The notes under the pieces are model-generated. The model was not told the origin of the DNA and made no database searches. It saw only the letters and a list, made by a program, of their open reading frames with translations. A DNA stretch of 64,000 bases from the NCBI GenBank assembly GCA_043788365.1, contig JAYVTZ010000013.1, positions 11,071 to 75,070 on the forward strand. The letters run 5' to 3'. Each line of letters starts with the position of its first letter. Within the stretch, counting starts at the first letter, position 1. Shown here piece by piece: positions 3,400-61,980 of the stretch. The DNA comes from Burkholderiaceae bacterium. Lineage in GTDB: Bacteria; Patescibacteriota; Saccharimonadia; Saccharimonadales; AQU-01. Both the position numbers and the translations under genes were made by a program.

Positions 3400-4617
3400 A
3401 TGTCGCTATTGCTTTTGATTTTGGGTCTAGTCCTGTTCGTCGCTCTCGTAGTCGTCCACGAGTTTGGCCATTTTATTATGGCTAAAAGAAGTGGTGTAGA
3501 GGTTGAAGAGTTTGGAGTCGGCTTCCCACCACGCGCCAAGGTGCTAACTCGCCATAATGGAACTGTTTACACGCTAAATTGGTTACCGCTCGGTGGCTTT
3601 GTCCGCCTCAAAGGTGAGCACGACGCCGATAAGTCCGAGGGTAGTTATGGCAGCGCTAGGTTACGAGATAAGATTAAGATTATGTTGGCAGGTGTATTCA
3701 TGAACCTAGCCACAGCATTTGTGCTGCTAACGTTACTCGCTCTGATTGGTCTACCGAAGTTAATTGACAATCAATTTACTATAAAATCGGATACAAAAAT
3801 TGTTCGCAATGATGTTCTAATTGGCGATGTTGAACCGGGGTCACCAGCCACAAAGACGGTTTCAGAACAGCTCGTAACTAAGAAGGTTAACTCAACTTCC
3901 AACAAAACTTACACTCTCGTTAATCAAGTTGCTAATCCAATTCGACAACGCGATCAAATTGTAAGTATGTCAGTTGCCGCTGGTAGCGAGAATCAAGCGG
4001 TTACGCAGATAAAAACAAACAATGACTTATCGCACTTCACGAGTACGCACCCCGACCAGTCGATAACCATAATTATTAAAAGAGACAATAGGTTAATAAA
4101 GTTAGGCACCAAGATCCGTAGTCGTGCAGAGATTGAAGCCAGTATTGAAGCCAACAACCAGAAAGGTTACCTCGGTGTCATACCGACCGAATACACTTTA
4201 CAGCGCTCAACTTGGTCGGCGCCAATAGTTGCAGCTGGGCTAATCAAGCAGTTTACCGTTTTGACGTTCCAAGGGCTAGGTAAGGCGATTGGTGGCCTAG
4301 CTAGCGGCAACACTGCTCAGGCGAGTGCTCAAGTATCTGGTCCGGTCGGTATATTTGTTTTGCTTAACGACGGCAGTAGTCTCGGTTACCAATTTATTTT
4401 AATGATAATTGCGATAATTTCGCTAACACTGGCAATTATGAACGGCTTGCCGATACCGGCACTCGATGGTGGCCGTCTATTTGTGACTTTATTATTCAGG
4501 GTCTTCAAAAAACCTCTAACTCGTCGACGTGAAGATGTAATTCATGGCACCGGTTTCGCTCTGTTAATGGTGTTATTTGTACTGGTCACAATCGTTGATG
4601 TGAAGCGGAACTTCTAG
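3400..4617 (+). CDS. rseP: RIP (site-2) zinc metalloprotease, M50 family
   Basis: HEFGHF zinc motif in TM1, a central PDZ-like region and a C-terminal NGLPIPALDGG motif. Confidence 0.85.
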   Translation: MSLLLLILGLVLFVALVVVHEFGHFIMAKRSGVEVEEFGVGFPPRAKVLTRHNGTVYTLNWLPLGGFVRLKGEHDADKSEGSYGSARLRDKIKIMLAGVFMNLATAFVLLTLLALIGLPKLIDNQFTIKSDTKIVRNDVLIGDVEPGSPATKTVSEQLVTKKVNSTSNKTYTLVNQVANPIRQRDQIVSMSVAAGSENQAVTQIKTNNDLSHFTSTHPDQSITIIIKRDNRLIKLGTKIRSRAEIEASIEANNQKGYLGVIPTEYTLQRSTWSAPIVAAGLIKQFTVLTFQGLGKAIGGLASGNTAQASAQVSGPVGIFVLLNDGSSLGYQFILMIIAIISLTLAIMNGLPIPALDGGRLFVTLLFRVFKKPLTRRREDVIHGTGFALLMVLFVLVTIVDVKRNF

Positions 4618-15918: not shown

Positions 15919-16431
15919 ATGATTACGCTAGGCATTGGCATCAAGATACGACAAGCACTGGGTTCAATAATGATTGTTTTTGGACTAAGCCTTATCCTTA
16001 TTGGCGCAAACCAAACTTTAATTAGACATCAGGACGAGCTAGCTTCTAAGCAACTCATAAATCAGAATCAAGTTTTAGGTGCAACATATATTGCCAAAGA
16101 TTACTCAGTCTATGTTAATAAAGTCGTCTCTCATCCAACAGATATTGCTAATAGTGGGCGGCGTTATTCGGCAGATGTAACACTAGTTAACACCTCAAAC
16201 CTAGCCCTAGATTATTCACCTGGTCTACAGCTGAGTTTGGTAGATGGAACTGGGCAAATCTATGCACCGACTGCAAAATATCTGGCTGATGGTCAGACGC
16301 TAGGTGGTAGCCTTGCCCCAGGTCAAAACACGACATCGACTATCGACTTTGATTTGCCTCAGGCGTCTCAACCAACCGAACTACAGTTTCAAGAAGATTT
16401 AACCAGCAAAGTAACCAAAATCAAATTATGA
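15919..16431 (+). CDS. membrane-anchored DUF4352-like protein
   Basis: N-terminal TM, then YSADVTLVNTSNLALDYSP...LVDGTGQIY...LAPGQNTTSTIDFDLP. Confidence 0.55.
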   Translation: MITLGIGIKIRQALGSIMIVFGLSLILIGANQTLIRHQDELASKQLINQNQVLGATYIAKDYSVYVNKVVSHPTDIANSGRRYSADVTLVNTSNLALDYSPGLQLSLVDGTGQIYAPTAKYLADGQTLGGSLAPGQNTTSTIDFDLPQASQPTELQFQEDLTSKVTKIKL

Positions 16432-18929
16432 GCCTTGACCCGATAGTTTTTACTCTACCTACGCCACCTCCACCACCGGTCAAGCTGCAGCGCCCCAAAT
16501 TTATTCCTGACTCAACCAAGCAAACCAAGATAATCGCTTCAATATCGGCAATTGTAATTGCGCTTAGTATGATTAGTTTTGCACTATTTACAGCCCTTAC
16601 TAACAACCAGACTTTTAAACAAAGCCATGGCATTAAAACCGCTGTTGAAGAGGCCACGCCTGGCGCATCGCTTAGTTCGGACAAGAGTTCAGCAGCATTG
16701 CCTGGTGGTGGAGTTGCAGTAGGTACTGGCGGAACTTCTGGAGGTGTAAATAGCCCAGTCGTGACTCTAACTGCTGAACCAGCCTCGGTACTACTCGGTG
16801 GCACAACTCAAATTAAATGGAAGGTTACAAATAATCCAACAAGCTGTCTGGCAACTGAAGACTGGGCAGGCAATAAAAATGTTGCCGGCGGTAGTGAAAC
16901 CACAGCACCACTGACCAAAGCACAGACCTATATTTTTACACTTACCTGTAAGACTGCAACAGACACAGGCTACGCAACGGTTACTGTTGGTGTCATCGAA
17001 CAATCAGTCAACACGAGCCCAACAACTAAGCCGACCGTAACACTGGCGGCGACACCGTCGGGTGTTTATGTTGGTCAAAGCTCAATCCTAAGCTGGAGCG
17101 TATCCAATAATCCAACCTCATGCACCGCAAGTGGTGACTGGTCAGGTGCCAAGCCAACCGGCGGTTCGGCTGACACCGGTGTACTGAACACCGCTAGACA
17201 GTATAACTACACACTGACATGTTCTAATGGCGCCGGCAGTAACAGTTCGACTACACATGTCTCGGCCATTAATATCCCTCCGAATACGCCGATAGTTGGG
17301 CTATCTAGCAATCCTTCGGGCCCGGTAGCACCCGGTGCAACTGCGACTCTAACCTGGACTTTCCTGGGTGGTGCACCAACCTCGTGTACGGCCAGTGGCG
17401 ACTGGACGGGCGCCAAGAGTACGGCTGGTGGCTCGGCAGTTGTAGGCCCGATGAATACAATTCGTACCTATAGCTATACTTTGACATGCTCTAATGTCAG
17501 CGGTTCATCCTTTGACACGGCCTCAATTCTGGTGATTCCAAATCCACCAGCTATATCTCTAACGGTTAGCCCCAGTGCGATATTTGTCGGTAGCTCGGCG
17601 ACTATAAGCTGGTCGGCAACAAATAGCCCGACAACCTGCACAGCTAGCGGTGATTGGGCGGGCGCCAAGGCTGCCAGTGGTACGGCTTCGACCGGCTCGT
17701 TAGCCGTCGCCAGAACCTATTTGTATAGCTTGTCTTGTGCGAATAGCGGCGGTACTACCACTGTCAGTAATATTCCGCTGACAGTAACTTTGCCGCCGGC
17801 TCCGGTGGTGACTATAAACGCGAACCCTATTTCGACAACTGTCGGTAGTTCGTCGACGTTATCATGGTCGGCAACAAATAGCCCGACAACCTGCACAGCT
17901 AGCGGTGATTGGGCGGGCGCCAAGGCTGCCAGTGGTACGGCTTCGACCGGTGCGCTAACCCTTGCCAAGACATATACTTTTACTCTGACGTGTTCAAATG
18001 CTGGTGGCTCAGGAGTTGGGTCGACCAGTGTAACTGTTTCCGTTGGTGGTGGAGCGGTCATAGCACCAGTCGTGACTATCACCGTTAGCCCAGCCAGTAT
18101 CGGTACGGGTAGTTCAGCGACGATTAGTTGGTCGGCAACAAATAGTCCAACGACATGTACGGCTAGTGGCTCGTGGACTGGCGCGAAAGGGACGAGTGGT
18201 ACGACCAGTACTGGAGTAATGAACGCCGCCGGAACCTTCACATACACTCTAACTTGTTCAAACACCGCAGGTAGTGACGTTAAGTCGGCAGTTTTAACTG
18301 TTATTGCAATTCCAGTCGTCACGATTTCGGTCGCGCCGACCTCAATAATTGCCGGCGCAAGTGCCAATATCTCCTGGAGCGTTACCAATACGCCGACAAC
18401 TTGTACGGCTGGCGGTAGCTGGACGGGCTCCAAGGCCGCCGCCGGTGGTCCGGTAACTACTGGTGTTATGTTAACTGCTGGCTCGTTTATTTACTCGCTA
18501 AGCTGTACCAACTCGGGCGGCACCGGTTCTGGCTCGGCGACCCTAACCGTCACCAGTGCCTCACCAGTTTTCTGTACTGGACTGGTGCCATGTTATGGCA
18601 TTAGCGAGATGGCGACTCGTGCCACTGTCGGTAATTGTTGGGGTTGGAACGATCCAGCCAACGGCACCGTGCCATGGGTGATTAATGTTACCAACTTTAG
18701 ACCAAGCCATCTCGGCGGCACGTCGCTTGGCTCACTTGAAACCGTCGGTTCGACCTGTAATAAGAATATGTTTGCTATTTTAGCTGGTACGGCGGCGATA
18801 CCGGGCTATAAGGATGCGAGCGGCGCCACGACCCATGCGCACGTTGCTGCCACCAAGAATAATACCGCCAGCTCAGGCCTTAAATCAGCCAGCTTCCATG
18901 TTGGCTATTATGATCCGACTAAACCATAG
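16428..18929 (+). CDS. large surface protein: seven tandem two-Cys Ig-like repeats plus a cytochrome-b5-like C-terminal domain
   Basis: A proline-rich N-terminus and TM anchor are followed by 7 repeats of about 86 aa (consensus ...SWSxTNxPTxCTASGDWxGAK...G...TYxYTLTCSNxxGS...). The last 120 aa read FCTGLVPCYG...GNCWGWN...VINVTNFRPSHLGG. Confidence 0.8.
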   Translation: MSLDPIVFTLPTPPPPPVKLQRPKFIPDSTKQTKIIASISAIVIALSMISFALFTALTNNQTFKQSHGIKTAVEEATPGASLSSDKSSAALPGGGVAVGTGGTSGGVNSPVVTLTAEPASVLLGGTTQIKWKVTNNPTSCLATEDWAGNKNVAGGSETTAPLTKAQTYIFTLTCKTATDTGYATVTVGVIEQSVNTSPTTKPTVTLAATPSGVYVGQSSILSWSVSNNPTSCTASGDWSGAKPTGGSADTGVLNTARQYNYTLTCSNGAGSNSSTTHVSAINIPPNTPIVGLSSNPSGPVAPGATATLTWTFLGGAPTSCTASGDWTGAKSTAGGSAVVGPMNTIRTYSYTLTCSNVSGSSFDTASILVIPNPPAISLTVSPSAIFVGSSATISWSATNSPTTCTASGDWAGAKAASGTASTGSLAVARTYLYSLSCANSGGTTTVSNIPLTVTLPPAPVVTINANPISTTVGSSSTLSWSATNSPTTCTASGDWAGAKAASGTASTGALTLAKTYTFTLTCSNAGGSGVGSTSVTVSVGGGAVIAPVVTITVSPASIGTGSSATISWSATNSPTTCTASGSWTGAKGTSGTTSTGVMNAAGTFTYTLTCSNTAGSDVKSAVLTVIAIPVVTISVAPTSIIAGASANISWSVTNTPTTCTAGGSWTGSKAAAGGPVTTGVMLTAGSFIYSLSCTNSGGTGSGSATLTVTSASPVFCTGLVPCYGISEMATRATVGNCWGWNDPANGTVPWVINVTNFRPSHLGGTSLGSLETVGSTCNKNMFAILAGTAAIPGYKDASGATTHAHVAATKNNTASSGLKSASFHVGYYDPTKP
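16758..18566 (+). repeat. intragenic tandem array of seven ~255-260-bp coding repeats
   Basis: Repeat boundaries were read from the protein. It includes an 86-bp perfect direct repeat at 17610-17695 and 17865-17950. Confidence 0.85.
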
Positions 18930-29127: not shown

Positions 29128-29190
29128 TTGCCCCACTTTTGTCTCGGCAAAAAGTTACCACCAAGCCCCCTAAAATGCTATGGATGCATA
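29128..29190 (+). repeat. mini copy of the structured repeat (both ends, no core)
   Basis: TTGCCCCACTTTTGTCTCGGCAAAAAG plus CCAAGCCCCCTAAAATGCTATGGATGC match the two ends of copy 38080-38294. Confidence 0.6.
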
Positions 29191-29320: not shown

Positions 29321-30397
29321 TTAGTCTGTAAAGACCTTATCACGATGGTATTGTAAATAATTTTTTCTTTCTTGGTTTAGTAAAAATTCATCTATTCTAT
29401 ATACGCTTAGATGATCTTTAAGTCTTTTCGATAAGTTTCTTGTTTGAGAAATTACTATGGTGCCATCATCAGAGAAGCTAATATATCCTTGGTCAAAAAG
29501 CTGATCTATGTTTCTACTTAATAACAGACCATTATTCTCATCAAAGGCTTCTTCCTCAGTTGAATGAGAATAGGGTTTTATGTGGCTAGCTATTAAGACA
29601 GGGTAGTCTAACTTTTCAACCATACAAACAACAGCATCGTAATATTTGTTTGACTCTGATATTAGCTGATTTTTATAAAGCCTCTGTAAGTAACTGTCTC
29701 TTAGTCCACTTACGGATTTGCCATCTGTTAGTATGGACTTTGATCTTGAGTCGCTACTGAAATATACGGCATCTTGCCTTACAGCAAGATCATCCAGTTG
29801 ATCTAAGAGGTTCCACAAATATCTTATTTGATTGTACTTTCTTTCAACAAATCCAATTGATCGTATATATGTGACTCCGGAATCTATCATTTCTCTTGTG
29901 GCAAAATCTTGTTTTGCTAACGAAACATTAATAGTCATTAGCGCGACAGCTTCTTCTTTTGTCAGTCTGCCGTCAGCAGCCGTTAGAGTGTTAACAAAAA
30001 AATTTATTTCGTTAACGTCTGAATCATTAGTAAATGATCGTCCAAAACTAGAGTTCGAATATACTATCTTAGAGAATATAGTACCTTTTTCCGATGGATC
30101 TGACGTAGATAGAAAATCCTTAGTATGTTTATGGTATCCTGCTAAGGCAGAATTCACGAAGCCTAGCTTGATAAATTGATTGATAGCTTTACGCGTTGAA
30201 ATAAGTTGAATAGGGTAATTCTTAACTAGTTCATGTTGTAGTTTATCATATGCATTACCAGCATTTGAAGATATTTCTTGTCTATTATCGTCAATGAAAT
30301 TAACAATTATTCCTAGACTACCGTTAAACCCATCTCCTGTTATGTCTGAGTAAGCTAGAGTAAGTTTCCAGTATGATTCGTACGTTTGGTCTGTCAT
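29321..30397 (-). CDS. restriction endonuclease candidate with a C-terminal HNH (HNH_2-like) nuclease domain
   Basis: The C-terminus reads VLIASHIKPYSHS...ENNGLLLSRNIDQLFDQGYISF. It is the last gene of the operon, 2 nt after the adenine methyltransferase. Confidence 0.6.
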   Translation of the reverse strand: MTDQTYESYWKLTLAYSDITGDGFNGSLGIIVNFIDDNRQEISSNAGNAYDKLQHELVKNYPIQLISTRKAINQFIKLGFVNSALAGYHKHTKDFLSTSDPSEKGTIFSKIVYSNSSFGRSFTNDSDVNEINFFVNTLTAADGRLTKEEAVALMTINVSLAKQDFATREMIDSGVTYIRSIGFVERKYNQIRYLWNLLDQLDDLAVRQDAVYFSSDSRSKSILTDGKSVSGLRDSYLQRLYKNQLISESNKYYDAVVCMVEKLDYPVLIASHIKPYSHSTEEEAFDENNGLLLSRNIDQLFDQGYISFSDDGTIVISQTRNLSKRLKDHLSVYRIDEFLLNQERKNYLQYHRDKVFTD

Positions 30398-30399
30398 AA

Positions 30400-31431
30400 C
30401 TAAGATCTCTCGGCGATAAACAAATATTCAGAATTCTTGTGCTTGTTTAATTTCCCTGTAATTTTATATGTGTGTTTCACTTCTACTACTTTAACACTTT
30501 TAGCGTGTTTACTTATAATGTCTATCAAAACATCCTTAGATGGAAAAGAAGACGTATTGTAACTAAGCATCCAATATTTGAAATTCCCAAGACTTGAAAA
30601 AAGTTTTTCGAATAGCTCGATGGAAGCGTCTTTATTGATGAAGTTGTTATTAAAGGGAGGAATAACCTCCCCTTGAATATAGTTATCCAAAAAGCTATAG
30701 AACTCATAATAGTTATTCATAGTGCCGGTATAGGGTGGATCAATATACACAAGGTCTGCAGACAATTCTTTTATTGCATCGAATGCATCCATATTTACTG
30801 AAACGTTTTCTTGACCATTATCAAAAACAGCCTTATTATACTGCTGAATATTAGATTTGAAGTGGTGTTCGAACGATTCATTATGATATGCCCTGCGTCT
30901 TTTATACTTAGCGTAGCTATACTCCTCGTCTCTTAATTGCTCTACCTTTTCCCATTTAATATTGAACCTAGAATAGGGCATTTTTCTAATCAACGACCTT
31001 CGCATTAATATTAGGGCAAGCGACTTTTTATACTCAGAACTCAAGTGTCGAATGTTTTCTCTGTATAGGTCGAGCTGTTCGCATTCATTGGGATAGAATA
31101 ATTTCCCAGCGTAATTACTATACACAAAGCCCCTAAATGGCTTACCTTTAAATATTAAATCTACGTCACTATCGGTAAGAGTTTCTCTATCGTTTTCAAT
31201 CAGCGCCCTACCTATCTCGTAGTTAATCCTCATGATATCGTTAGATATAACTGACATACCGCGCCTCTTATAGGCGTATGCAACTGAGGCTCCACCCGAG
31301 AATAAGTCAAGTACGGTATTAACCCCTGAAGGGGTGTTGTCGCATATCCAGTCAGTAATTTTTTCTTTATTTCCGATGAAGTTTACTGTCGGGTACTTGA
31401 TTCTACTTGCAGGATGATTTTTACTTATCAT
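30400..31431 (-). CDS. DNA N6-adenine methyltransferase (Dam/D12-class-like)
   Basis: DLFSGGASV (motif I) and VYIDPPYTG (motif IV, DPPY). Confidence 0.8.
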   Translation of the reverse strand: MISKNHPASRIKYPTVNFIGNKEKITDWICDNTPSGVNTVLDLFSGGASVAYAYKRRGMSVISNDIMRINYEIGRALIENDRETLTDSDVDLIFKGKPFRGFVYSNYAGKLFYPNECEQLDLYRENIRHLSSEYKKSLALILMRRSLIRKMPYSRFNIKWEKVEQLRDEEYSYAKYKRRRAYHNESFEHHFKSNIQQYNKAVFDNGQENVSVNMDAFDAIKELSADLVYIDPPYTGTMNNYYEFYSFLDNYIQGEVIPPFNNNFINKDASIELFEKLFSSLGNFKYWMLSYNTSSFPSKDVLIDIISKHAKSVKVVEVKHTYKITGKLNKHKNSEYLFIAERS

Positions 31432-32425
31432 GAACTGAACCGGTGCTCATCATATGTCTAATATTTTTCGCTAAATGATAACCAAGGAGCGGTGGGACTG
31501 AGTTACCTACTTGTTGCTGCTGGGAGATTACCGAGCCTTCAAAAATAAAATTATCTGGATACGTTTGTAAGCGAGCAAGTTCTCTGACTGTGAGCGCTCG
31601 ATTATCTCGGTAGTGAAAAACTTTACGCATGTCCCCGGTAATGCAAACTGAGGGCTCTGCACTCGAGTACCGTATGTACTTTCTTATATCGCCAGAAGTT
31701 GGTCTAATTGCTTTAGGAATATCATTGCGAGTACCTCCATCTGTGACAAAACTCATTTTATGTAGCATTTGGTCCGTATGATTCATGGCAACATGATTAG
31801 GAATGCATGAATTTTCTCCAGATTTCAATCTGGGCAAGTCGTCGATTGCATCTTTTACAGAGACAGGTTTTGAACCTAATGGTTTAGGGAATATTATATT
31901 GACATCAAGTTTTGTTCCAATAAATATAGTTCTTCTGCGTTGTTGAGGCACACCATAATCAGCGGTATTTATGACTTTAACTTTTACGTTATAACCGATT
32001 TTTTTAAATGTTTCTAATATCTCGGCGCGTGTTTTCCCCTGGTTATGCGTATATAGTCTAGCTACATTTTCCATTATGAAGAAGTCTGGACTTACGGCAT
32101 CAACTACTCTAGCAAACTCCTTAAACAAATAGTTTCTGGGGTCGTCCACAAACTTTCGACCAATACTCCCAGCCATGCTGAACCCCTGGCATGGTGGACC
32201 GCCAACAACCACATCAATCTTTTGTTTCTTAATCAATGTGCGAATCTCTTCAGTGGTTAATTCAGTTATATTCTTCTTGATGAGTGTGTGAGATGGAAAA
32301 TTACGTGAGTATGTCTTATTGAACGTCTGATCAAAATCCACCGAAAAAACATTAGCAAAGGCTGCTTGCTCGAAACCGAGAGTTAACCCTCCCGAACCAC
32401 TAAATAGATCTATAAATGTTGGCAT
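31421..32425 (-). CDS. DNA cytosine-5 methyltransferase
   Basis: DLFSGSGG, GGPPCQGFS, ENV, QRRRT and GNSVPP are the canonical m5C motifs I, IV, VI, VIII and X. Confidence 0.9.
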   Translation of the reverse strand: MPTFIDLFSGSGGLTLGFEQAAFANVFSVDFDQTFNKTYSRNFPSHTLIKKNITELTTEEIRTLIKKQKIDVVVGGPPCQGFSMAGSIGRKFVDDPRNYLFKEFARVVDAVSPDFFIMENVARLYTHNQGKTRAEILETFKKIGYNVKVKVINTADYGVPQQRRRTIFIGTKLDVNIIFPKPLGSKPVSVKDAIDDLPRLKSGENSCIPNHVAMNHTDQMLHKMSFVTDGGTRNDIPKAIRPTSGDIRKYIRYSSAEPSVCITGDMRKVFHYRDNRALTVRELARLQTYPDNFIFEGSVISQQQQVGNSVPPLLGYHLAKNIRHMMSTGSVHDK

Positions 32426-32656: not shown

Positions 32657-33097
32657 ATGATGAATATTTACTTAGACATTGATGGGGTGTTGGTGGCAAA
32701 TGATTATAATGCCGCTAATTATTCTGCGGAGTTTATTGAGTACGTATTGACCAAGTTCCCAGATACAACCTACTGACTGACCACTCACTGCCAAGGGGAT
32801 GCTAGTCGACCGATTAAGGATATTGGCCACTTGTTTGATGCGAAAACTATTGATTATATGAAGATGATTAAGCCAACAACGTGGCTAGAATCACCAAATA
32901 AAACATCGGCCATAGATTTTAGTCAGCCCTTTTTATGGTTTGATGATGATTCTTTTTACGGCGAGAGGCAAGAGTTAATCAAGAACAATGTACTAGATAA
33001 TTGGATAGAAGTTGACCTGCGCAAAGATCCAGACCAACTACTAAAATTCATTACCAGTTTCCCGATTGCTTCTGAAATGGTGCAAGAAGGCAATTAA
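32657..33097 (+). pseudogene. HAD-like hydrolase gene interrupted by one in-frame TGA
   Basis: The frame from ATG 32657 reads MMNIYLDIDGVLVAN...PDTTY, then TGA (32774-32776), then LTTHCQGD... and continues into track ORF 32831..33097. DIDGVL is HAD motif I. Confidence 0.55.
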
Positions 33098-33105
33098 AAA
33101 AAATA

Positions 33106-33343
33106 GCCCGCTTCCAGCGGGCATACATGGTCTTTGGTGGGGCTTGGCTGCTTCCTGATACGGACTCGTCAAACTGACAACTATTGGAGCGGACTCCGCC
33201 ATCAAACTCTATTATGAATCTTTGCTGGCCGACTGAAAGGAGTCGTCTGCTCTTGTTGTCAGGCTTGACTGGAGAACAGTACCCAAGAAGTAGACACCGC
33301 CCCTCGGCTTTTGCGCTATCTTTTGCCGAAACAAAAGTGTCAG
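33106..33343 (-). repeat. structured repeat, copy 1 (candidate ~240-nt ncRNA or mobile-element end)
   Basis: GC hairpin GCCCGC-TTCCA-GCGGGC (33106-33122), nested helices, and a terminal hairpin CTTTTG-CCGAAA-CAAAAG. On the minus strand, TGaATAATT lies just outside the outer end and the GC hairpin is followed by T8. Confidence 0.6.
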
Positions 33344-36695: not shown

Positions 36696-36800
36696 ACTCG
36701 GATATTCGCCTTAGCAAGTTTTCAATTTAGTAGCGTAGCCATAAGCATGTATGCGATAATGCTTGGGAGTCAAAATAAATAGAGATTTTTTGGAGGCTAT

Positions 36801-38048
36801 ATCAAGACACTGCCACTTCCACCACAAGATGGTGCCCAACCGAAGCGACGTAAAAGATGGTTTAGATTTGTTGAAACGGCCAAGTTACTAGTTTTTGGCA
36901 TAGTAGTTTTTTGGTTTGGGCTAACCGTCGGACAGGGAAAGATTGTCTTTGGCCGCGACGCAATCCTACATAAGCCAGTCGCTAAAGGCCTGCCCAATAA
37001 TCTCGACTACACGGCTGTCGAGCAGGTCTATGACAGCCTGAAAGATAACTACGACGGTCAATTAGACAGTGCCAAGCTACTTGATGGTCTCAAAGAGGGC
37101 CTAGCTAAATCAACTGGCGACCCATACACTCAGTACTTTAATCCAAAAGCCGCCAAAGACTTTAAAGAGCAATTAACAGGCACATTCACTGGTATCGGTG
37201 CCGAACTGAGCAAGGACACGACCAATAATGTCATTGTTGTCGTCTCGCCGATTGCTGGTTTCCCAGCCGATAAAGCAGGACTAAGGCCAAAAGATGTTAT
37301 TGCCCAAATCGACGGTAAGTCGGCGGTTGATTTGTCGATTAATGACGCAGTCAGTAAGATCCGCGGCGCTAAAGGCACTACCGTCAAACTCACGATTATT
37401 CGAGACGGTAAGCAACAAATTGAAATGAGCATTGTTCGAGATGAAATAACGATTCCAAGCGTGACCTCAAAAGTTTTGGACGGCAACATTGGCTACATCA
37501 AGATAGTTAGATTCGCCGAAGACACGGCACTATTATCTAGCCAGGCGGCAGATAAGTTGAAATCACAAAATGTAAAAGGCATTGTACTCGATTTGCGGTC
37601 TGACCCAGGCGGTCTACTCGATGCTGCGGTATCGGTCTCAAGCTTGTGGCTAGACAATCAAACCGTTTTGACAGAACGCCGCGGTGGAGTCATCATCCGC
37701 ACCTATGCCTCCAAGGGCATCCCGACTCTAAAAGGCATACCAACGATTGTGCTAATTGATGCTGGTAGCGCCTCGGCTAGTGAAATCACTGCCGGAGCCT
37801 TGCACGACAATAAGGTCGCAACTCTAGTCGGCGTTAAGAGTTTTGGTAAGGGCAGTGTCCAGCAAATCGTTAACTTTAACGACGATAGCTTCTTAAAGGT
37901 TACGATTGCCCGTTGGTACACGCCAGATGGCAAGAATATCGATAAGGAGGGCATTAGCCCTGATACCGAGATTAAGCGGACTGATGATGACTACAAAACT
38001 GGTAACGATCCTCAGCTCGACTTTGCTACCGCACAACTCAAGAAATAG
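36801..38048 (+). CDS. ctpA: C-terminal processing (S41) peptidase; start codon non-canonical or uncertain
   Basis: The frame is open from 36783. It encodes a TM segment, TGDPYTQYFNP, FTGIGAEL, a PDZ domain (AGLRPKDVIAQIDG), GSASASEI (Ser) and SFGKGSVQ (Lys). The track shows only 37332..38048 because no ATG, GTG or TTG occurs in frame upstream. GGAGG (36792-36796) precedes ATC at 36801. Confidence 0.8.
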   Translation: MKTLPLPPQDGAQPKRRKRWFRFVETAKLLVFGIVVFWFGLTVGQGKIVFGRDAILHKPVAKGLPNNLDYTAVEQVYDSLKDNYDGQLDSAKLLDGLKEGLAKSTGDPYTQYFNPKAAKDFKEQLTGTFTGIGAELSKDTTNNVIVVVSPIAGFPADKAGLRPKDVIAQIDGKSAVDLSINDAVSKIRGAKGTTVKLTIIRDGKQQIEMSIVRDEITIPSVTSKVLDGNIGYIKIVRFAEDTALLSSQAADKLKSQNVKGIVLDLRSDPGGLLDAAVSVSSLWLDNQTVLTERRGGVIIRTYASKGIPTLKGIPTIVLIDAGSASASEITAGALHDNKVATLVGVKSFGKGSVQQIVNFNDDSFLKVTIARWYTPDGKNIDKEGISPDTEIKRTDDDYKTGNDPQLDFATAQLKK

Positions 38049-38079
38049 TTTTCTTTAGTCCGCTAAAGCGGACTTTAAT

Positions 38080-38294
38080 TTGCCACTTTTGTCTCGGCAA
38101 AAGATGGCGCAAAACCGAGGGGCGGTGTCGACAACTCGATATAGCTTCCAAACAAAAAGACAACACACCCTCCGGAACTCATCCTAACGGATTTCAAACA
38201 GTCCTCGGGAATTAGTTTGTTGTCTTTTTGATTGAATCTATTTCGGGTCGCCGTCAAGCCCCCATAAGACCATGGATGCCCGCTGGAGGCGGGC
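38080..38294 (+). repeat. structured repeat, copy 2 (same ends, different core)
   Basis: TTGCCACTTTTGTCTCGGCAAAAG...GGGGCGGTGTC...CAAAAAGACAACA/TGTTGTCTTTTTG...CAAGCCCCC...GCCCGC-TGGAG-GCGGGC. Confidence 0.6.
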
Positions 38295-38375
38295 GATTAC
38301 ATAACAGCTAAAACTACCAATTCACATAATCCCCATCTGTTTGGGGACGAACCCCAACCCACATAATAAATATGA

Positions 38376-38597
38376 TTAATGATTGGCTGCGGACTTGTAT
38401 AACACTCTGATCACGTACCTAACGCCTTTGTATAGTTGTAAGTAGAAAAGTACGGGTAGCGAATACGTTAGTAGGCCTAAGATAAGAGAGAACCGATTAT
38501 GTCTGTCTGGTAATATATTCCGCTCATCAAGCATGCGATACGACTCTTTAAAGCTCTCATAAGTCTTAGCTGGTAATTCTTTATAATTAATCGACAT
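38376..38597 (-). CDS. hypothetical 73-aa single-TM protein (cassette cargo)
   Basis: Hydrophobic stretch FSLILGLLTYSLPVLFYLQL. On the minus strand, TGgTATCAT ends 6 nt before the ATG. Confidence 0.45.
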   Translation of the reverse strand: MSINYKELPAKTYESFKESYRMLDERNILPDRHNRFSLILGLLTYSLPVLFYLQLYKGVRYVIRVLYKSAANH

Positions 38598-38710
38598 AAG
38601 TGTATGATACCATCTAAATAATAAAACTAGCCCATGACTCCTGGTCTGCTATCCCACCCTACGCACTTGTTGCCAGGGGATATTCACCTATATTTTTAAT
38701 TTATAAAATT

Positions 38711-38968
38711 GCCCGCCTCCAGCGGGCATCCTTGGTATTAGAGGGGGCTTGGCTGCTTCCTGATACATGTCTCGTCAAACTGACAACTTCTGCAGTGGAC
38801 TCAGCCATCAAACTCTATTTTGAAACTTTGATGGCCGACTGTAAGGAGTCGTCCACTGCGTTGTCAGGCTTGACAGGAGACTGTATCAAGAAGCAGACAC
38901 CGCCCCGAGTTTTTGCGCCATCTTTTGGCGGTCCAAAAGTGGCAAAGAGTAGTCTGCTTTAGCGGACT
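38711..38968 (-). repeat. structured repeat, copy 3
   Basis: By eye, roughly four-fifths identical to copy 1, with compensatory changes in helices. GC hairpin at 38711-38727. Confidence 0.6.
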
Positions 38969-39109
38969 AAAATAGACCTATCTTAAATTATAATTGAGGT
39001 TTATATCAGAGAACCAGTTTGCAGAGTTGCATATTTTACACTTGCCATAAGCGTTGCATCTAGGGTAGTATCTATAATGTAAAGTTCAAAACGAGGGGTT
39101 GTATAAGAG

Positions 39110-57283: not shown

Positions 57284-57862
57284 ATGAGTAAAAAAACAAT
57301 ATGGGTAGGGGCTATAATGCGAGCAGTCGGTGTGATAAGTGCCGTCGTTGTCGTCATGACAGGTGTAACTTATGCGGCGTTGCAAAGCCCACAAGCAATG
57401 CTGCTTAATAATTCAATTTCGAGCGCTACGGCTGATCTCCGAATTGGTACTTCAGCGACAAGTTTTGCGGCAACTAGGACGGGTTTTAGTTTTGCTGATA
57501 TTGTTCCTGGCGGTGCCGCAATGCCGGTTGATGGTAACTTGTTCTATTTAAAGAACTATGGCTCGGCTAATTTAGGGCTGCGTGTTTCAGTTGGGAGTAT
57601 ACCAATTAACACAAGCAATGTTGATCTTACAAAAGTCTCGTTTGTCTTAACTAGGGTCGATACCAATGCTAGTCAAACCTTCACGGTTCAGGCCCTAGTC
57701 GATGCTTATGTTAATGGTGGCTTAACTATGACCGACTCATTGTCAGGTGGCGTAATTGCACAATATAAACTGCAGGCTATCATGGGCACAGATGCTTTCA
57801 GCGGTCAGTCAGCCGCAATTAGTGACCTAGATATCGTGTTCACTGGTACTGGTTCAAACTAA
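57284..57862 (+). CDS. secreted protein with a SipW-type (TasA/camelysin-like) signal peptide
   Basis: AGGAGGG SD. The N-terminus VVVVMTGVTYAALQS resembles the SipW-cognate signal class. The body is beta-rich and the gene is adjacent to a sipW-like peptidase. Confidence 0.5.
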   Translation: MSKKTIWVGAIMRAVGVISAVVVVMTGVTYAALQSPQAMLLNNSISSATADLRIGTSATSFAATRTGFSFADIVPGGAAMPVDGNLFYLKNYGSANLGLRVSVGSIPINTSNVDLTKVSFVLTRVDTNASQTFTVQALVDAYVNGGLTMTDSLSGGVIAQYKLQAIMGTDAFSGQSAAISDLDIVFTGTGSN

Positions 57863-59150: not shown

Positions 59151-60701
59151 ATGACTCAAGACGAAGCCTTAGCAATATTAGAGTCGGGCACTTCTGTACT
59201 ATTAACTGGCGCAGCTGGCGCAGGTAAAACACATACCCTGAATAAGTTTATTCAGCGTTCCAAGCGGGCCGGCAAGAATGTTGCAGTTACGGCCACAACC
59301 GGCCTGGCCGCTACTCATCTGAATGGCACGACACTGCATGCCTGGTCTGGCATAGGTGTTCACGACGAATTACCACACGAGTTTTTCAAGCGTATGAGTA
59401 AACAGCGACGTGATCTAATCACAAAGGCTGATATTTTGGTAATTGACGAGATTAGTATGCTCCACGATTTTCGTCTGGATATTGTTGAAGAAGTTACTCG
59501 GCGGATTCGTGAAATTGACCAGCCATTTGGTGGCCTACAGGTTGTCATGAGTGGTGACTTCTATCAGCTACCGCCAATAAACCGTGGCGACTCACGTCAA
59601 GGTGGTTTTGTTACGTTTTCAAAAGCATGGCACAACGAAATATTTGAAGTTTGCTACTTGTTGGAGCAGCATCGTCAAAAAACTGATCAAGAATACACTG
59701 ATATTTTAAACGGTATTCGAGTGGGGGTATTGCGCCAAAGCCAGATTGATAGATTGAAGTCAAGCAGCGACACAATACATGATCCGTGGCTTTCCATGAC
59801 TAGATTGCTAACGACTAATGCCGACGTCGACACCATAAACTTACGTCAATTAGCTAAGCTTGAAGGCGACTCAAAGCAATTTGTGATGTCGTCGTCAGGT
59901 GGCAAAAAGTATGTTGAACAGTTGAAGCGATCGTGTTTAGCGCCGGAGCTGCTCGAACTTAAAGTCGGCGCTATCATAATGTGTATCAAAAACAGCCAAG
60001 ACAAAAAATATGTTAACGGTAGTTTGGGTGTTGTTGAAGATTTCGACGGCGATAGCGGCTATCCAGTCGTAAAACTAATCAATGGCCGTACGCTAACAAT
60101 TAAGCCTGATACTTGGGAGCTTATTGATGGTGATAAGCGCCGGGCCCAGATTACCCAACTACCGCTCAGATTGGCATGGGCGATAACGGTCCACAAAAGT
60201 CAGGGTATGACACTTGATGCGGCCAGAATTGATCTTAGCAATGCGTTTGTAGAAGGCATGGGCTATGTAGCTTTATCACGGGTCCGCGGACTCGAACATC
60301 TGATACTCGATGGCCTTAATGGTATGGCTCTGCGAGTTAGTCCTGTGGCTAGGCGGATCGATGAGGAGTTGCGTAGTAAAAGTGAAGAGGCACTTGAAAG
60401 ACACAAGAGTCTGATAAATATCTGGAGAGAGGCCGAAAAATCGAGACCCAAAATTAGCGCTCGGCCTAAATCTAAACCCGAGCCAGCTGCAGGTGCCTGG
60501 ACAGAAAAACTCGAAAAAATGCGTGAAGTTTACCCCAATGCCTATCGCCCTTGGACCGAGAAAGATGATGCTAAACTCAGACAGCAGTTTGACGCAGGTG
60601 CAGGTCTATCGACCCTTACTTCTAGTTTTGGTCGCCACCCAGGCTCTATCAAATCACGGTTGAAGAAGCACTATGGTGACGATTTTAGCTTTAAAGCTTA
60701 A
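59151..60701 (+). CDS. Pif1/RecD-like SF1 helicase with a C-terminal helical (HTH-like) tail
   Basis: TGAAGAGKTH (Walker A), VIDEISML, SGDFYQLPPI, AITVHKSQG. Confidence 0.8.
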   Translation: MTQDEALAILESGTSVLLTGAAGAGKTHTLNKFIQRSKRAGKNVAVTATTGLAATHLNGTTLHAWSGIGVHDELPHEFFKRMSKQRRDLITKADILVIDEISMLHDFRLDIVEEVTRRIREIDQPFGGLQVVMSGDFYQLPPINRGDSRQGGFVTFSKAWHNEIFEVCYLLEQHRQKTDQEYTDILNGIRVGVLRQSQIDRLKSSSDTIHDPWLSMTRLLTTNADVDTINLRQLAKLEGDSKQFVMSSSGGKKYVEQLKRSCLAPELLELKVGAIIMCIKNSQDKKYVNGSLGVVEDFDGDSGYPVVKLINGRTLTIKPDTWELIDGDKRRAQITQLPLRLAWAITVHKSQGMTLDAARIDLSNAFVEGMGYVALSRVRGLEHLILDGLNGMALRVSPVARRIDEELRSKSEEALERHKSLINIWREAEKSRPKISARPKSKPEPAAGAWTEKLEKMREVYPNAYRPWTEKDDAKLRQQFDAGAGLSTLTSSFGRHPGSIKSRLKKHYGDDFSFKA

Positions 60702-60720
60702 TCGTATACAATTAATAGTG

Positions 60721-61980
60721 ATGGAATCCAAAAAACAAAGAAAAACAATCTTCCCGAAAGACTTCCTTTGGGGTGCAAGCACGGCTAGCCATCAAGTCGA
60801 AGGCGGCAATTATAATCAGTGGACTGTTTGGGAATTAGAGAATGCTAAACGACTGGCGAGTACTGCACAAAAAAGACTTGGCTGGATGCCGTCGTGGGAC
60901 TTAGTCGAGAAAAGAGCCACCAGCCCGAGTAATTACGTGTCAGGTGAGGGTATTGATCATTATCATCGCTATGAGCATGATTTTGATATAGCCGAGAAGC
61001 TGAACATTAATTCATTACGCTTCGGTATTGAATGGTCGCGCCTAGAGCCAGAAATGGGTAAATGGGATAACGAACAAATCATCCATTACAAAAAGTATAT
61101 TAAAGCCATGACTACCAAGGGTATGACACCAGTGCTTAATCTTTGGCACTGGACGCTACCAACTTGGTTTAGCGATAATGGCGGCTTCAAGAACCGTGCT
61201 AATTTGGTCTACTGGCAGGGCTTTGTCCAAAAAGTTGCCGATGAACTATTGACTGACATCGACTACGTGATTACGCTGAACGAGCCTAATGTTTATGCTA
61301 GCTTTGGCTATCTCAACGGCGAGTGGCCACCTCAGGAAAAGAATCTCATCAGCATGGCCCGGGTCTATTGGAATTTAACCCGCGCCCATAAGCAAGCCTA
61401 TGCCATCGTCAAAGCTAAAAATCCAAAAATCCAAATTGGTATCGCTGCCCAACTAGCTAATATTCAAGCCAAGCGGCCACACAATATGATTGATTCAGTC
61501 GTGACTAAAATAATGCGGTATGTATGGAACTGGTGGTTTTTGCATCGTATTAACAATCAGCAAGACTTCGTCGGCTTTAACTATTATTTTACCGATTATT
61601 ACAAAGGCTTTAAACGGGCTAATCCGGCCGTCCCGGTCAATGATCTCGGCTGGTACATGGAACCAGAAGGAATTTATCCTTTGTTGCTAAGAGTTTGGTC
61701 CAGATTTAAAAAACCGATTATGATTGCCGAGAATGGCACGGCTGACGAAGGCGACGAATACAGGCAGTGGTGGATCGGCGAAACCATCGTTGCCATGGAG
61801 CGGGCGATTAGTGAAGGTGTCGATGTTATTGGCTATTTCCACTGGAGTCTACTTGATAATTTTGAGTGGGCCTATGGTTGGTGGCCAAAATTTGGTCTAA
61901 TTGCAGTTGATAGAAATACAATGAAGCGACAAGTTCGTAAAAGTGCGCTTTGGTATGCCGAGCAGATAATTAAAAGATAA
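60721..61980 (+). CDS. GH1 family beta-glucosidase
   Basis: FLWGASTASHQVEGG, TLNEPN (acid/base Glu), IAENG (nucleophile Glu). ATG 60721 lies 8 nt after TACAAT (60707-60712). Confidence 0.85.
   Translation: MESKKQRKTIFPKDFLWGASTASHQVEGGNYNQWTVWELENAKRLASTAQKRLGWMPSWDLVEKRATSPSNYVSGEGIDHYHRYEHDFDIAEKLNINSLRFGIEWSRLEPEMGKWDNEQIIHYKKYIKAMTTKGMTPVLNLWHWTLPTWFSDNGGFKNRANLVYWQGFVQKVADELLTDIDYVITLNEPNVYASFGYLNGEWPPQEKNLISMARVYWNLTRAHKQAYAIVKAKNPKIQIGIAAQLANIQAKRPHNMIDSVVTKIMRYVWNWWFLHRINNQQDFVGFNYYFTDYYKGFKRANPAVPVNDLGWYMEPEGIYPLLLRVWSRFKKPIMIAENGTADEGDEYRQWWIGETIVAMERAISEGVDVIGYFHWSLLDNFEWAYGWWPKFGLIAVDRNTMKRQVRKSALWYAEQIIKR

Follow-up and report, generated by a model that had tools for sequence, protein, structure and literature searches.

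An undescribed repeat family, three full copies and one reduced copy of which lie in a 64,000-nt stretch of contig JAYVTZ010000013.1 (hereafter the window, within which all positions are counted), is the subject of this analysis. With moderate confidence, we consider it to be a lineage-restricted family of interspersed, modular and palindromic DNA repeats, present in a small freshwater Saccharibacteria clade and marking slots that hold gene cassettes. The initial annotation of this DNA had described an unclassified family with conserved ends and with variable cores that keep their pairing, and this description stands. No Rfam family matches the copies, and their pairing exceeds that of the controls. 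Its interpretation stands in part only: the family is real and unclassified, but its covariation does not speak for an RNA, and the convergent pairs, the accessory genes that they bracket and the empty or decayed syntenic sites had been missed.

No Rfam 15 model, those of 6S, SRP, tmRNA, RNase P, HEARO/IscB and TnpB guide RNAs and ribozymes included, reaches its gathering score anywhere in the window. At E ≤10, the window copies give only two chance-level matches, to a plant microRNA (19 bits, for a cut-off of 120) and to a Trp leader (18 bits, for a cut-off of 41). In the related loci (designated below by L numbers), RNase P RNA and tRNA are found, showing that the Rfam models work on this lineage, and nothing is found on the element. 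No match to the repeat is obtained by blastn against phage and plasmid collections, and pattern scans of viral contigs give a single chance match, in a GC-rich coding region (L023). Finally, no relevant description was found in the literature on such repeats in Saccharibacteria or in bacteria of the candidate phyla radiation.

Architecture and distribution of the units

Each unit, of about 225-245 bp, is composed of P1, a linker, P2, a tail and P3, in this order. P1 is an 11-6-11 hairpin located at the 5' end and followed by the conserved linker CAAAACCGAG. P2 is a long imperfect hairpin of 145-165 nt, with a conserved GGGGC/GCCCC base. The conserved tail AAGACCATGGA then leads into P3, a terminator-like hairpin. 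The two ends of one unit differ (P1 versus P3) and are not inverted repeats of each other.

In the window, all the sequence features listed by the initial annotation are found where it had placed them, or a few bases away. The hairpin CACTTTTG-N6-CAAAAG is exact in copies 1-3 and has one mismatch in the mini copy. When up to two mismatches are allowed, it has 8 matches, including the opposite-strand matches of the palindromes of copies 1-3 and one unrelated match at 57616, as compared with 0.9 expected, and none of 100 shuffles reaches 8. The GC hairpin ATGCCCGCTGGANGCGGGC has 3 matches, for 0.01 expected. A repeat finder recovers both direct and inverted relations among the copies, the inverted repeat I1 of copies 2 and 3 having 96-nt arms, and when the window copies are aligned with MAFFT, their 5' and 3' ends prove conserved and their cores fall into two kinds. 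Copies 1 and 3, previously judged by eye to be about four-fifths identical, are 83% identical by blastn, and copy 2 does combine the common ends with a different core, as seen both in the alignment and by blastn. As compared with shuffled sequences, folding is strongest for copy 3 (-125.6 kcal/mol, z -10.2), followed by copy 1 (-85.5 kcal/mol, z -3.7) and copy 2 (-78.2 kcal/mol, z -4.2). The mini copy is reduced as had been proposed: its P1 hairpin (CACTTTTG-TCTCGG-CAAAAA) is fused straight onto the 3' tail (CCAAGCCCCC..ATGGATGC), P2 and the GC terminator being gone. A profile of 17 copies, searched with nhmmer against the 64 kb, detects no additional copy.

Relatives were sought by an exact-pattern scan of species-representative genomes and by a scan of metagenomes; syntenic loci were fetched via PyrG homologues, and nhmmer with --max was also used to search for copies. 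Copies are present in other Saccharibacteria assemblies. The pattern scan retrieves 8 loci in 3 Saccharibacteria / Saccharimonas metagenome-assembled genomes and the metagenome scan one further contig. Together, these loci and this contig yield 14 further full copies, and L019 two strongly diverged ones, that is 16 beyond the window and 19 in total, in addition to fragments. Alignments were made of 17 copies and, with the L019 pair added, of 19. These copies are spread over four or more species and at least six intergenic sites: prfB-ftsE, ctpA-pyrG, comM-infC, after a response regulator gene, between dut and a cob(I)alamin-adenosyltransferase-like gene, and near priA. No element is detected in L016-L018, L022 and L024-L027, even though their PyrG is 82-88% identical to that of the window, indicating that the family is confined to a small, patchy clade. 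As judged from the sequences scanned, it is restricted to a few freshwater Saccharibacteria.

The copies are mosaics of interchangeable modules. There are (i) two 5' end variants, the lower P1 stem GCCA/UGGC being replaced by GUUA/UAAC (GCUA/UAGC in L019), (ii) three types of P2 outer stem (A, B and C), two interiors (X and Y) and many apical hairpins, and (iii) four unrelated P3 hairpin sequences. Despite extensive sequence change, the L019 copies retain the whole architecture, and even they have kept the linker, the tail and motif X.

Three other readings of parts of the unit were tried and rejected. Pairing of the P1 loop (CUCGG) with the linker (CCGAG) as a pseudoknot is not supported, as the changes in copy 3 and in L007 are not compensatory and as the loop residues extend P1 instead. 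In type A copies, GGAAGCAGCCAAG resembles the conserved domain IV sequence of the signal recognition particle RNA; it is however a fully paired helix devoid of a GGAA-capped hairpin, and no model of this RNA scores. Lastly, a coding repeat or a type I toxin-antitoxin repeat (Ldr or Ibs/Sib-like), which would contain a conserved small hydrophobic ORF, is not retained: the only recurrent open reading frame (ORF, MPLLSRQKMAQNRGAV...) is not hydrophobic, is without a start codon in the window copies, is frameshifted by an extra G in copy 1 and meets an early stop in type A.

Pairing, strand symmetry and the possibility of an RNA gene

Base pairing throughout the family is real. Of the 57 pairs predicted by RNAalifold, 26 have changed in both partners; an explicit count gives 27 such pairs, with 95.9% of the cells paired. 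Pairing falls to 84.2% in shuffles (none of 500 reaches the observed value) and to 35-47% when the partners are slid.

The initial annotation had taken this covariation as selection on the RNA structure of one strand, which is not borne out. When the two arms of P2 are aligned with each other in the 19 copies, 1090 Watson-Crick pairs, 41 G·U, 37 A·C and 137 other mismatches are counted, the wobble counts being few and not phylogenetically independent. The alignment of the reverse complements folds as well as that of the inward-reading strand, or better (62 pairs and -64.2 kcal/mol, versus 57 pairs and -55.5 kcal/mol). The opposite strand of copy 1 folds equally well, which was a first hint of a palindrome rather than of a strand-specific fold. 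Furthermore, interior Y (copies 1, 3 and L006+) aligns to interior X (L004, L005, L007 and L008) only when reverse-complemented, with a score some 3.5-4 standard deviations higher than that of shuffled sequences, the direct alignment being at background. The flipped apex is a DNA event, a recombination between the two arms of the hairpin by which the motifs of the segment become their complements, and copies with a flipped apex persist in two species with their pairing kept.

The double changes themselves are fewer than they seem. Many of them correspond to one swap between types A and B (7 versus 10 sequences), and thus to few independent events. A helix cited as an example does change as described, from GAGCGGAC/GTCTGCTC in copy 1, with one mismatch, to a perfect CAGTGGAC/GTCCACTG in copy 3. 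The second example, GCCATCAAA...TTTGCTGGC, is a mismatch in copy 1 and a perfect pair in copy 3, hence not a double change. An apparent G·U bias in favour of the inward-reading strand in the RNAalifold table was dropped: this table is no fair test of wobble, because only the pairs allowed on that strand are tabulated, and neither the arm-versus-arm count nor the reverse-complement folding displays any bias. With a strand-symmetric wobble, antisense folding and a flipped apex, the covariation cannot be taken as a sign that one RNA strand is under selection. It points to a DNA palindrome homogenised by recombination. More generally, compensatory covariation, even when strong, does not suffice to show that a palindromic DNA repeat functions as RNA, and a control for strand symmetry changes the conclusion.

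A direction is nevertheless still indicated by the asymmetric, conserved linker and tail and by the regular inward hairpin with its U-rich tract, found on the same side in all 19 copies despite four unrelated P3 sequences. In this respect, the inward-reading transcription unit proposed by the initial annotation is supported in part: every copy has the hairpin and the U-rich tract on its inward-reading strand, and the run of eight T claimed behind the GC hairpin of copy 1 on the minus strand is there, as A8 at 33096-33103 of the plus strand, the hairpin being scored terminator-like. A promoter scan finds sites no more frequently than in shuffled sequence.

It is possible, though rather unlikely, that the units are multicopy structured small-RNA genes, each with its own inward promoter, a P1-P2-P3 fold and an end at P3, in which the single-stranded linker and tail, along with the internal-loop motif GGAACU...CAGACAGUCCUCGG, would be the parts that interact in trans with a protein or a target. 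Besides the terminator-like P3 and the strong pairing, the conservation of the unpaired linker, tail and motif X in the diverged L019 copies is in line with such genes, as are a -10-like box AATAAT located 6 nt upstream of P1 in copy 1 and, in the long 5' variant, a TTGCCA-16 nt-TAGCTT arrangement (read from the sequences) ending about 7 nt before P1. The strand symmetry argues against them, and so does the flipped apex, which turns motif X into its complement in copies that nonetheless persist. Several short-5' copies begin 8-10 nt behind the terminator of the upstream gene, leaving no room for a promoter, and copies are decayed, fused or absent at the syntenic sites of close relatives. The absence of any matching Rfam family is a further point on this side.

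Convergent pairs, cargo and turnover of the slots

The order in the window is secA, an M16 peptidase gene, prfB, the mini copy (+), a restriction-modification island (-), an orphan ORF with a TGA, copy 1 (-), an 89-aa ORF (ORF89), ftsE, ftsX, a CHAP peptidase gene, ctpA, copy 2 (+), a 73-aa ORF, copy 3 (-) and pyrG. In both groups of copies, P1 ends outward and P3 ends inward, so that both groups are convergent. Elsewhere, solo copies are found in L001, L003 and L004 and tight pairs in L005, L006, L007 and L008, with spacers of 30-60 bp made up of the two P3 hairpins and an AT-rich stretch. Most often, units are thus arranged tail to tail, and the composite palindrome of a pair, of about 500 bp, is located in spacers between housekeeping genes.

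Accessory genes are observed between the members of a pair. The interval is 1.17 kb in L009 (an 83-aa PLDc_N-like protein and a 218-aa orphan), contains one 164-aa orphan gene in L019, and is in the window 0.4 kb between copies 2 and 3 and 3.9 kb, with the restriction-modification island, between the mini copy and copy 1. The cargo is therefore between the pair members in 4/4 cases, although this space is the smallest part of the spacer; by our own arithmetic, which assumes three equally likely positions, the probability is about 0.01. The restriction enzyme is at best 57% identical to a non-self homologue, and its homologues are spread across many phyla, indicating that the island was imported. 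The gene of this enzyme was also recovered on a 2.8-kb Logan contig, and no exact match was obtained for the PyrG and FtsE proteins of the window.

The same sites are variable among relatives. At prfB-ftsE, L010-L015 have an empty spacer of 50 bp and L007 one of about 50 bp; a 183-aa ORF is present there in L016, and a solo P1-like hairpin in L019. In the window, this site carries an insertion of 4.6 kb, which goes on beyond copy 1 as far as about 33690, ORF89 included. The insertion is therefore not cleanly delimited by the ends of the element, as a transposon would be, and a restriction-modification island moving as a transposon bounded by them was rejected. The ctpA-pyrG spacer is empty in L022, contains orphan ORFs in L016 and L027 and xfp-ackA in L025, and carries a pair, with or without cargo, in the window, L006, L007 and L019. 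The order of the cores is inverted, being B then A in the window and A then B in L006 and L007. In the ctpA-pyrG spacer of L010-L015 (9516-9833), the 5' halves of two convergent copies are fused around a new central hairpin, neither unit being intact, and this is seen in six independent assemblies. No target-site duplication is found in the flanks of 8 pairs or solo copies.

Two observations concern L019 and L020. The solo hairpin of the L019 prfB-ftsE spacer (3806-3835, -) reads GCTACTTTTG-TATCGA-CAAAAAAAA, and the sequence upstream of it, GCAAGAGATATCAC..TCTTGC, also precedes both full copies of L019. L020 6815-8304 corresponds to L019 7321-9659, with the diverged pair, the 164-aa gene and pyrG; its left neighbours are a histidine kinase and a response regulator gene instead of ctpA. 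This change of left flank reflects either the recombination of copies from different sites or a chimeric assembly at the repeat.

In the explanation that we favour, recombination or gene conversion between copies and between hairpin arms would preserve and reshuffle the family as DNA. These processes would keep the arms complementary, flip apices, swap modules and, by deleting P2, give mini copies. When transcribed from outside, each unit could fold and halt transcription before the centre of the pair, the inward terminators insulating the slot. The repeated units could moreover act as portable homology, so that homologous recombination with DNA taken up by the cell brings in or exchanges cassettes such as the restriction-modification island; being inverted, the units would keep the cargo from being deleted through recombination between its flanks. 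Saccharibacteria genomes, of about 1 Mb, have very little repeated or non-coding DNA, and the gain and loss of defence genes in these bacteria are poorly understood; a repeat marking slots would give a concrete handle on this gene flux. The family would also be a useful marker, both to type strains and to detect where metagenome-assembled genomes are broken or chimeric.

Several points weigh against this DNA-level explanation. A conserved, unpaired and asymmetric linker and tail, together with a hairpin always on the same side, would be expected of a transcribed RNA gene and are not obviously needed by a DNA element, and the architecture kept by the L019 copies despite their divergence suggests purifying selection on more than palindromy. 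As for the mechanism of spread, neither a target-site duplication nor a transposase was seen next to the copies inspected, and the sample is of only 19 full copies. Cassette exchange is based on four cases, with no identical cargo at two sites. Both slots vary also in relatives without the element, so that the co-occurrence of repeat and cargo could partly reflect the few permissive sites of a compact genome. The paucity and non-independence of the wobble counts add to these points.

Alternatively, the units could be the ends or recombination sites of a cassette-mobilising system, on which a recombinase or transposase encoded elsewhere acts at P1; we regard this as unlikely. The P1 arms TGCCACTTTTG / CAAAAGATGGC would flank a 6-bp centre, and DNA between copies would be inverted, inserted or exchanged, in an Xer/pdif-like manner. 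The 11-6-11 layout of P1 fits this proposal, with an arm asymmetry (a bulged A) conserved in short-5' copies and an invariant CG in the centre. The long 5' variant opens with a P1 half-site plus centre, the 17-nt TGCCACTTTTGTCTCGG, joined to unrelated sequence, which resembles a crossover in the central region, and TGCCACTTTTGTCTCGG forms the perfect terminal inverted repeats of the pairs in L005-L007. The position of the cargo, always inside pairs, the inversion of the pair between the window and L006/L007 and the other left flank in L020 are also in its favour. On the other side, no recombinase or transposase was recognised among the ORFs beside copies in the window (27-42 kb), and none, nor any TnpB or IscB, by eye in the translations of ORFs of at least 120 aa beside copies in the 8 related loci L001-L008, where only housekeeping genes were recognised; the initial annotation had proposed to look for such a gene next to the same ends. 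There is neither a target-site duplication nor a clean empty-site junction, the insertion including ORF89, and the 150-nt P2 and the conserved tail are left unexplained. The change of flank in L020 could be an assembly chimera, and ordinary homologous recombination between repeats can give all the rearrangements seen.

A bolder version, to which we give equally little credence, is that the convergent modules are a dedicated cassette-capture and exchange platform of Saccharibacteria, in which a recombinase acting at P1 or an RNA of the module would take part. If true, accessory and defence genes would be inserted between two insulating terminator modules and moved across chromosomal slots and strains, by a functional analogue of integrons or pdif modules in these ultra-small episymbiotic bacteria.

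Finally, it is very unlikely that the copies are functionless leftovers of a few segmental duplications with a coincidental cargo association since, even though their distribution is narrow and patchy with decayed copies and both slots vary without the element, they occupy six or more separate intergenic sites in at least four species, keep their architecture when strongly diverged as in L019, pair far above both controls, and recur in a convergent arrangement with the cargo inside in 4/4 cases.

Table 1. Repeat copies, their parts, flanking hairpins and cargo genes in the window.
Feature	Position	Strand	Description
Mini copy	29128-29190	+	63 bp; directly 3' of the prfB stop codon
Type II restriction-modification cargo	29321-32425	-	Pfam; PADLOC REase_II 5.7e-91
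HNH restriction enzyme	29321-30397	-	Pfam
D12-class N6A methyltransferase	30400-31431	-	Pfam
C5 methyltransferase	31421-32425	-	Pfam
Orphan ORF, cargo	32657-33097	+	DIDG (HAD-like) N-terminal motif; in-frame TGA at 32774-32776
Copy 1	33098-33343	-	Outer stem type A, flipped interior Y, short 5' end
Copy 1 parts	P1 33315-33341; P2 33139-33303; P3 33106-33122	-	P3 followed by UA and U8
Flanking hairpin AGTCCGCTAAAGCGGACT	38057-38074	+	With T-rich tail; right after the ctpA stop codon
Copy 2	38080-38304	+	Outer stem type B, interior X carrying GGAACT...CAAACAGTCCTCGG
Copy 2 parts	P1 38082-38108; P2 38119-38262; P3 38278-38294	+
Spacer of copies 2 and 3 (slot)	38305-38701		Orphan 73-aa ORF 38376-38597 (-)
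Copy 3	38702-38945	-	Outer stem type A, interior Y
Copy 3 parts	P1 38917-38943; P2 38744-38906; P3 38711-38727	-	P2 an almost perfect hairpin
Mirror of the flanking hairpin	38951-38968	-	AGTCCGCTAAAGCAGACT on the minus strand; outside copy 3

The positions of the copies, of their parts and of the cargo are collected in Table 1. The hairpin that follows ctpA is mirrored outside copy 3, so that the inverted repeat of copies 2 and 3 reaches about 25 nt past P1. Within the slot, 38295-38350 (about 56 nt after copy 2, including the hairpin CCCCATCTGTTTGGGG) is common to the cargo edge of L009: it is about 80% identical to L009 4667-4721, located after the (+) copy at a different chromosomal site. 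The hairpin of this segment, CCCCA-TCTGTT-TGGGG, is kept in the L009 version (TCTCTA/TGGGGA) only via plus-strand G·U pairs. The 73-aa ORF has no Pfam, PHROG or PADLOC match. The orphan ORF upstream of copy 1 has no Pfam match either, even with W substituted; its single TGA is at a Trp-compatible spot (..TTY*LTTHC..), and it could be a recent TGG-to-TGA pseudogene or be read through.

As for the neighbouring genes, homology shows ctpA (36786-38048, +) to be intact, with 36843-38045 aligning to residues 20-419 of the L010 protein without a stop; the ORF list gives only 238 aa because there is no in-frame ATG, GTG or TTG before 37332. Upstream of pyrG, 38990-39109 (..TTCTACACTTGCCATAAGC..GGTAGTATCTA..GTAAAG..GAGGGG..) is conserved in L006, L007, L010, L016, L019 and L027, whether the element is present or not, and is probably the pyrG promoter and leader.

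Three further observations concern other sequences. The RNase P RNA gene of L009 (2245-2781) is nearly identical to that of L005 (2614-2983), with one substitution outside the insertion junction, and has in addition a 167-nt insertion closed by an 11-bp inverted repeat (GGCGCTCCTTT...AAAGGAGCGCC), in which nhmmer finds no similarity to the repeat family. At 61761-61856 (+) of the window, ARAGORN calls a 'tRNA-???' with a four-base anticodon inside a 435-aa ORF (60673-61980); it is probably a false positive, Rfam finding no tRNA in the window. At 17557-18263, three tandem units of about 255-264 nt, 63-79% identical over 188 nt, lie inside an 833-aa ORF (16428-18929) and look like a repeated protein domain.

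Comparison with known systems

The pdif modules are similar in that a cargo is bracketed by inverted palindromic sites, with an 11-6-11 layout like that of P1, and attC sites in that their structure is more conserved than their sequence. No resemblance to the dif consensus was however seen by eye. The attC sites are of 57-141 bp, are arranged in direct orientation in arrays next to intI and fold in a strand-specific manner, whereas the copies described here are convergent and strand-symmetric, and no integrase was noticed in the ORFs of the window between 26 and 43 kb. The guide RNAs of IscB or TnpB and the bridge RNAs of IS110 adjoin or overlap the gene of their nuclease or recombinase, whereas the neighbours of the copies are prfB, ftsE, ctpA, pyrG, comM, infC, dut, priA and a response regulator gene.

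REP units are of 20-40 nt, occur in hundreds and are linked to a RAYT gene. Like REP, BIME and REPIN sequences, the units of our family are palindromic intergenic repeats, often in inverted pairs, and such repeats can act as terminators or as stabilisers of mRNA. The family differs by the size of its unit (about 230 nt, in the range of 225-245 nt), by its few copies per genome sampled and by the lack of a recognised Y1 transposase next to the copies.

Correia (NEMIS) elements duplicate a TA target. They occur either full-length (156 bp) or internally deleted and have been called transposon-like (PMC1797815), and a study cited there reports that RNase III acts on their transcripts (PMC1797815). 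The two forms are like the full and mini copies found here. Correia elements have terminal inverted repeats within one unit, whereas our unit has differing ends, is larger, with three hairpins, and comes without a target-site duplication in the flanks inspected, which also sets it apart from DDE-type miniature inverted-repeat transposable elements.

Among known kinds of interspersed repeat, our family is closest to BOX and to the Correia and NIME elements. Among the BOX, RUP and SPRITE repeats of Streptococcus pneumoniae, BOX is modular and structured, is judged parasitic and can affect co-transcribed genes (PMC3049150). Like BOX, the present family is intergenic and found in one species group, combines conserved ends (boxA and boxC in BOX) with a variable middle and an extensive secondary structure, and turns over slowly between strains. 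BOX differs in that its tandem boxB is not one long hairpin, in that it has no built-in terminator and in that it is not reported as convergent pairs bracketing accessory genes; a sequence relationship is not expected. In NIME, many repeat families are assembled as mosaics that short, conserved inverted repeats enclose, in a naturally transformable host (PMC1797815). Module mosaics, spread over at least six intergenic sites, lineage restriction and presence or absence between relatives are all found in our family.

A parallel for the slots is with the minimal mobile elements of Neisseria, which are small alternative cassettes, notably restriction-modification ones, located between conserved housekeeping genes, devoid of mobility genes of their own and exchanged by transformation and homologous recombination (PMC1797815). 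The prfB-ftsE and ctpA-pyrG sites behave like such sites, holding alternative gene content without mobility genes. In minimal mobile elements, the housekeeping genes on either side serve as homology arms; here, the cassette is bracketed in addition by a repeated structured module, which could allow it to move from one site to another.

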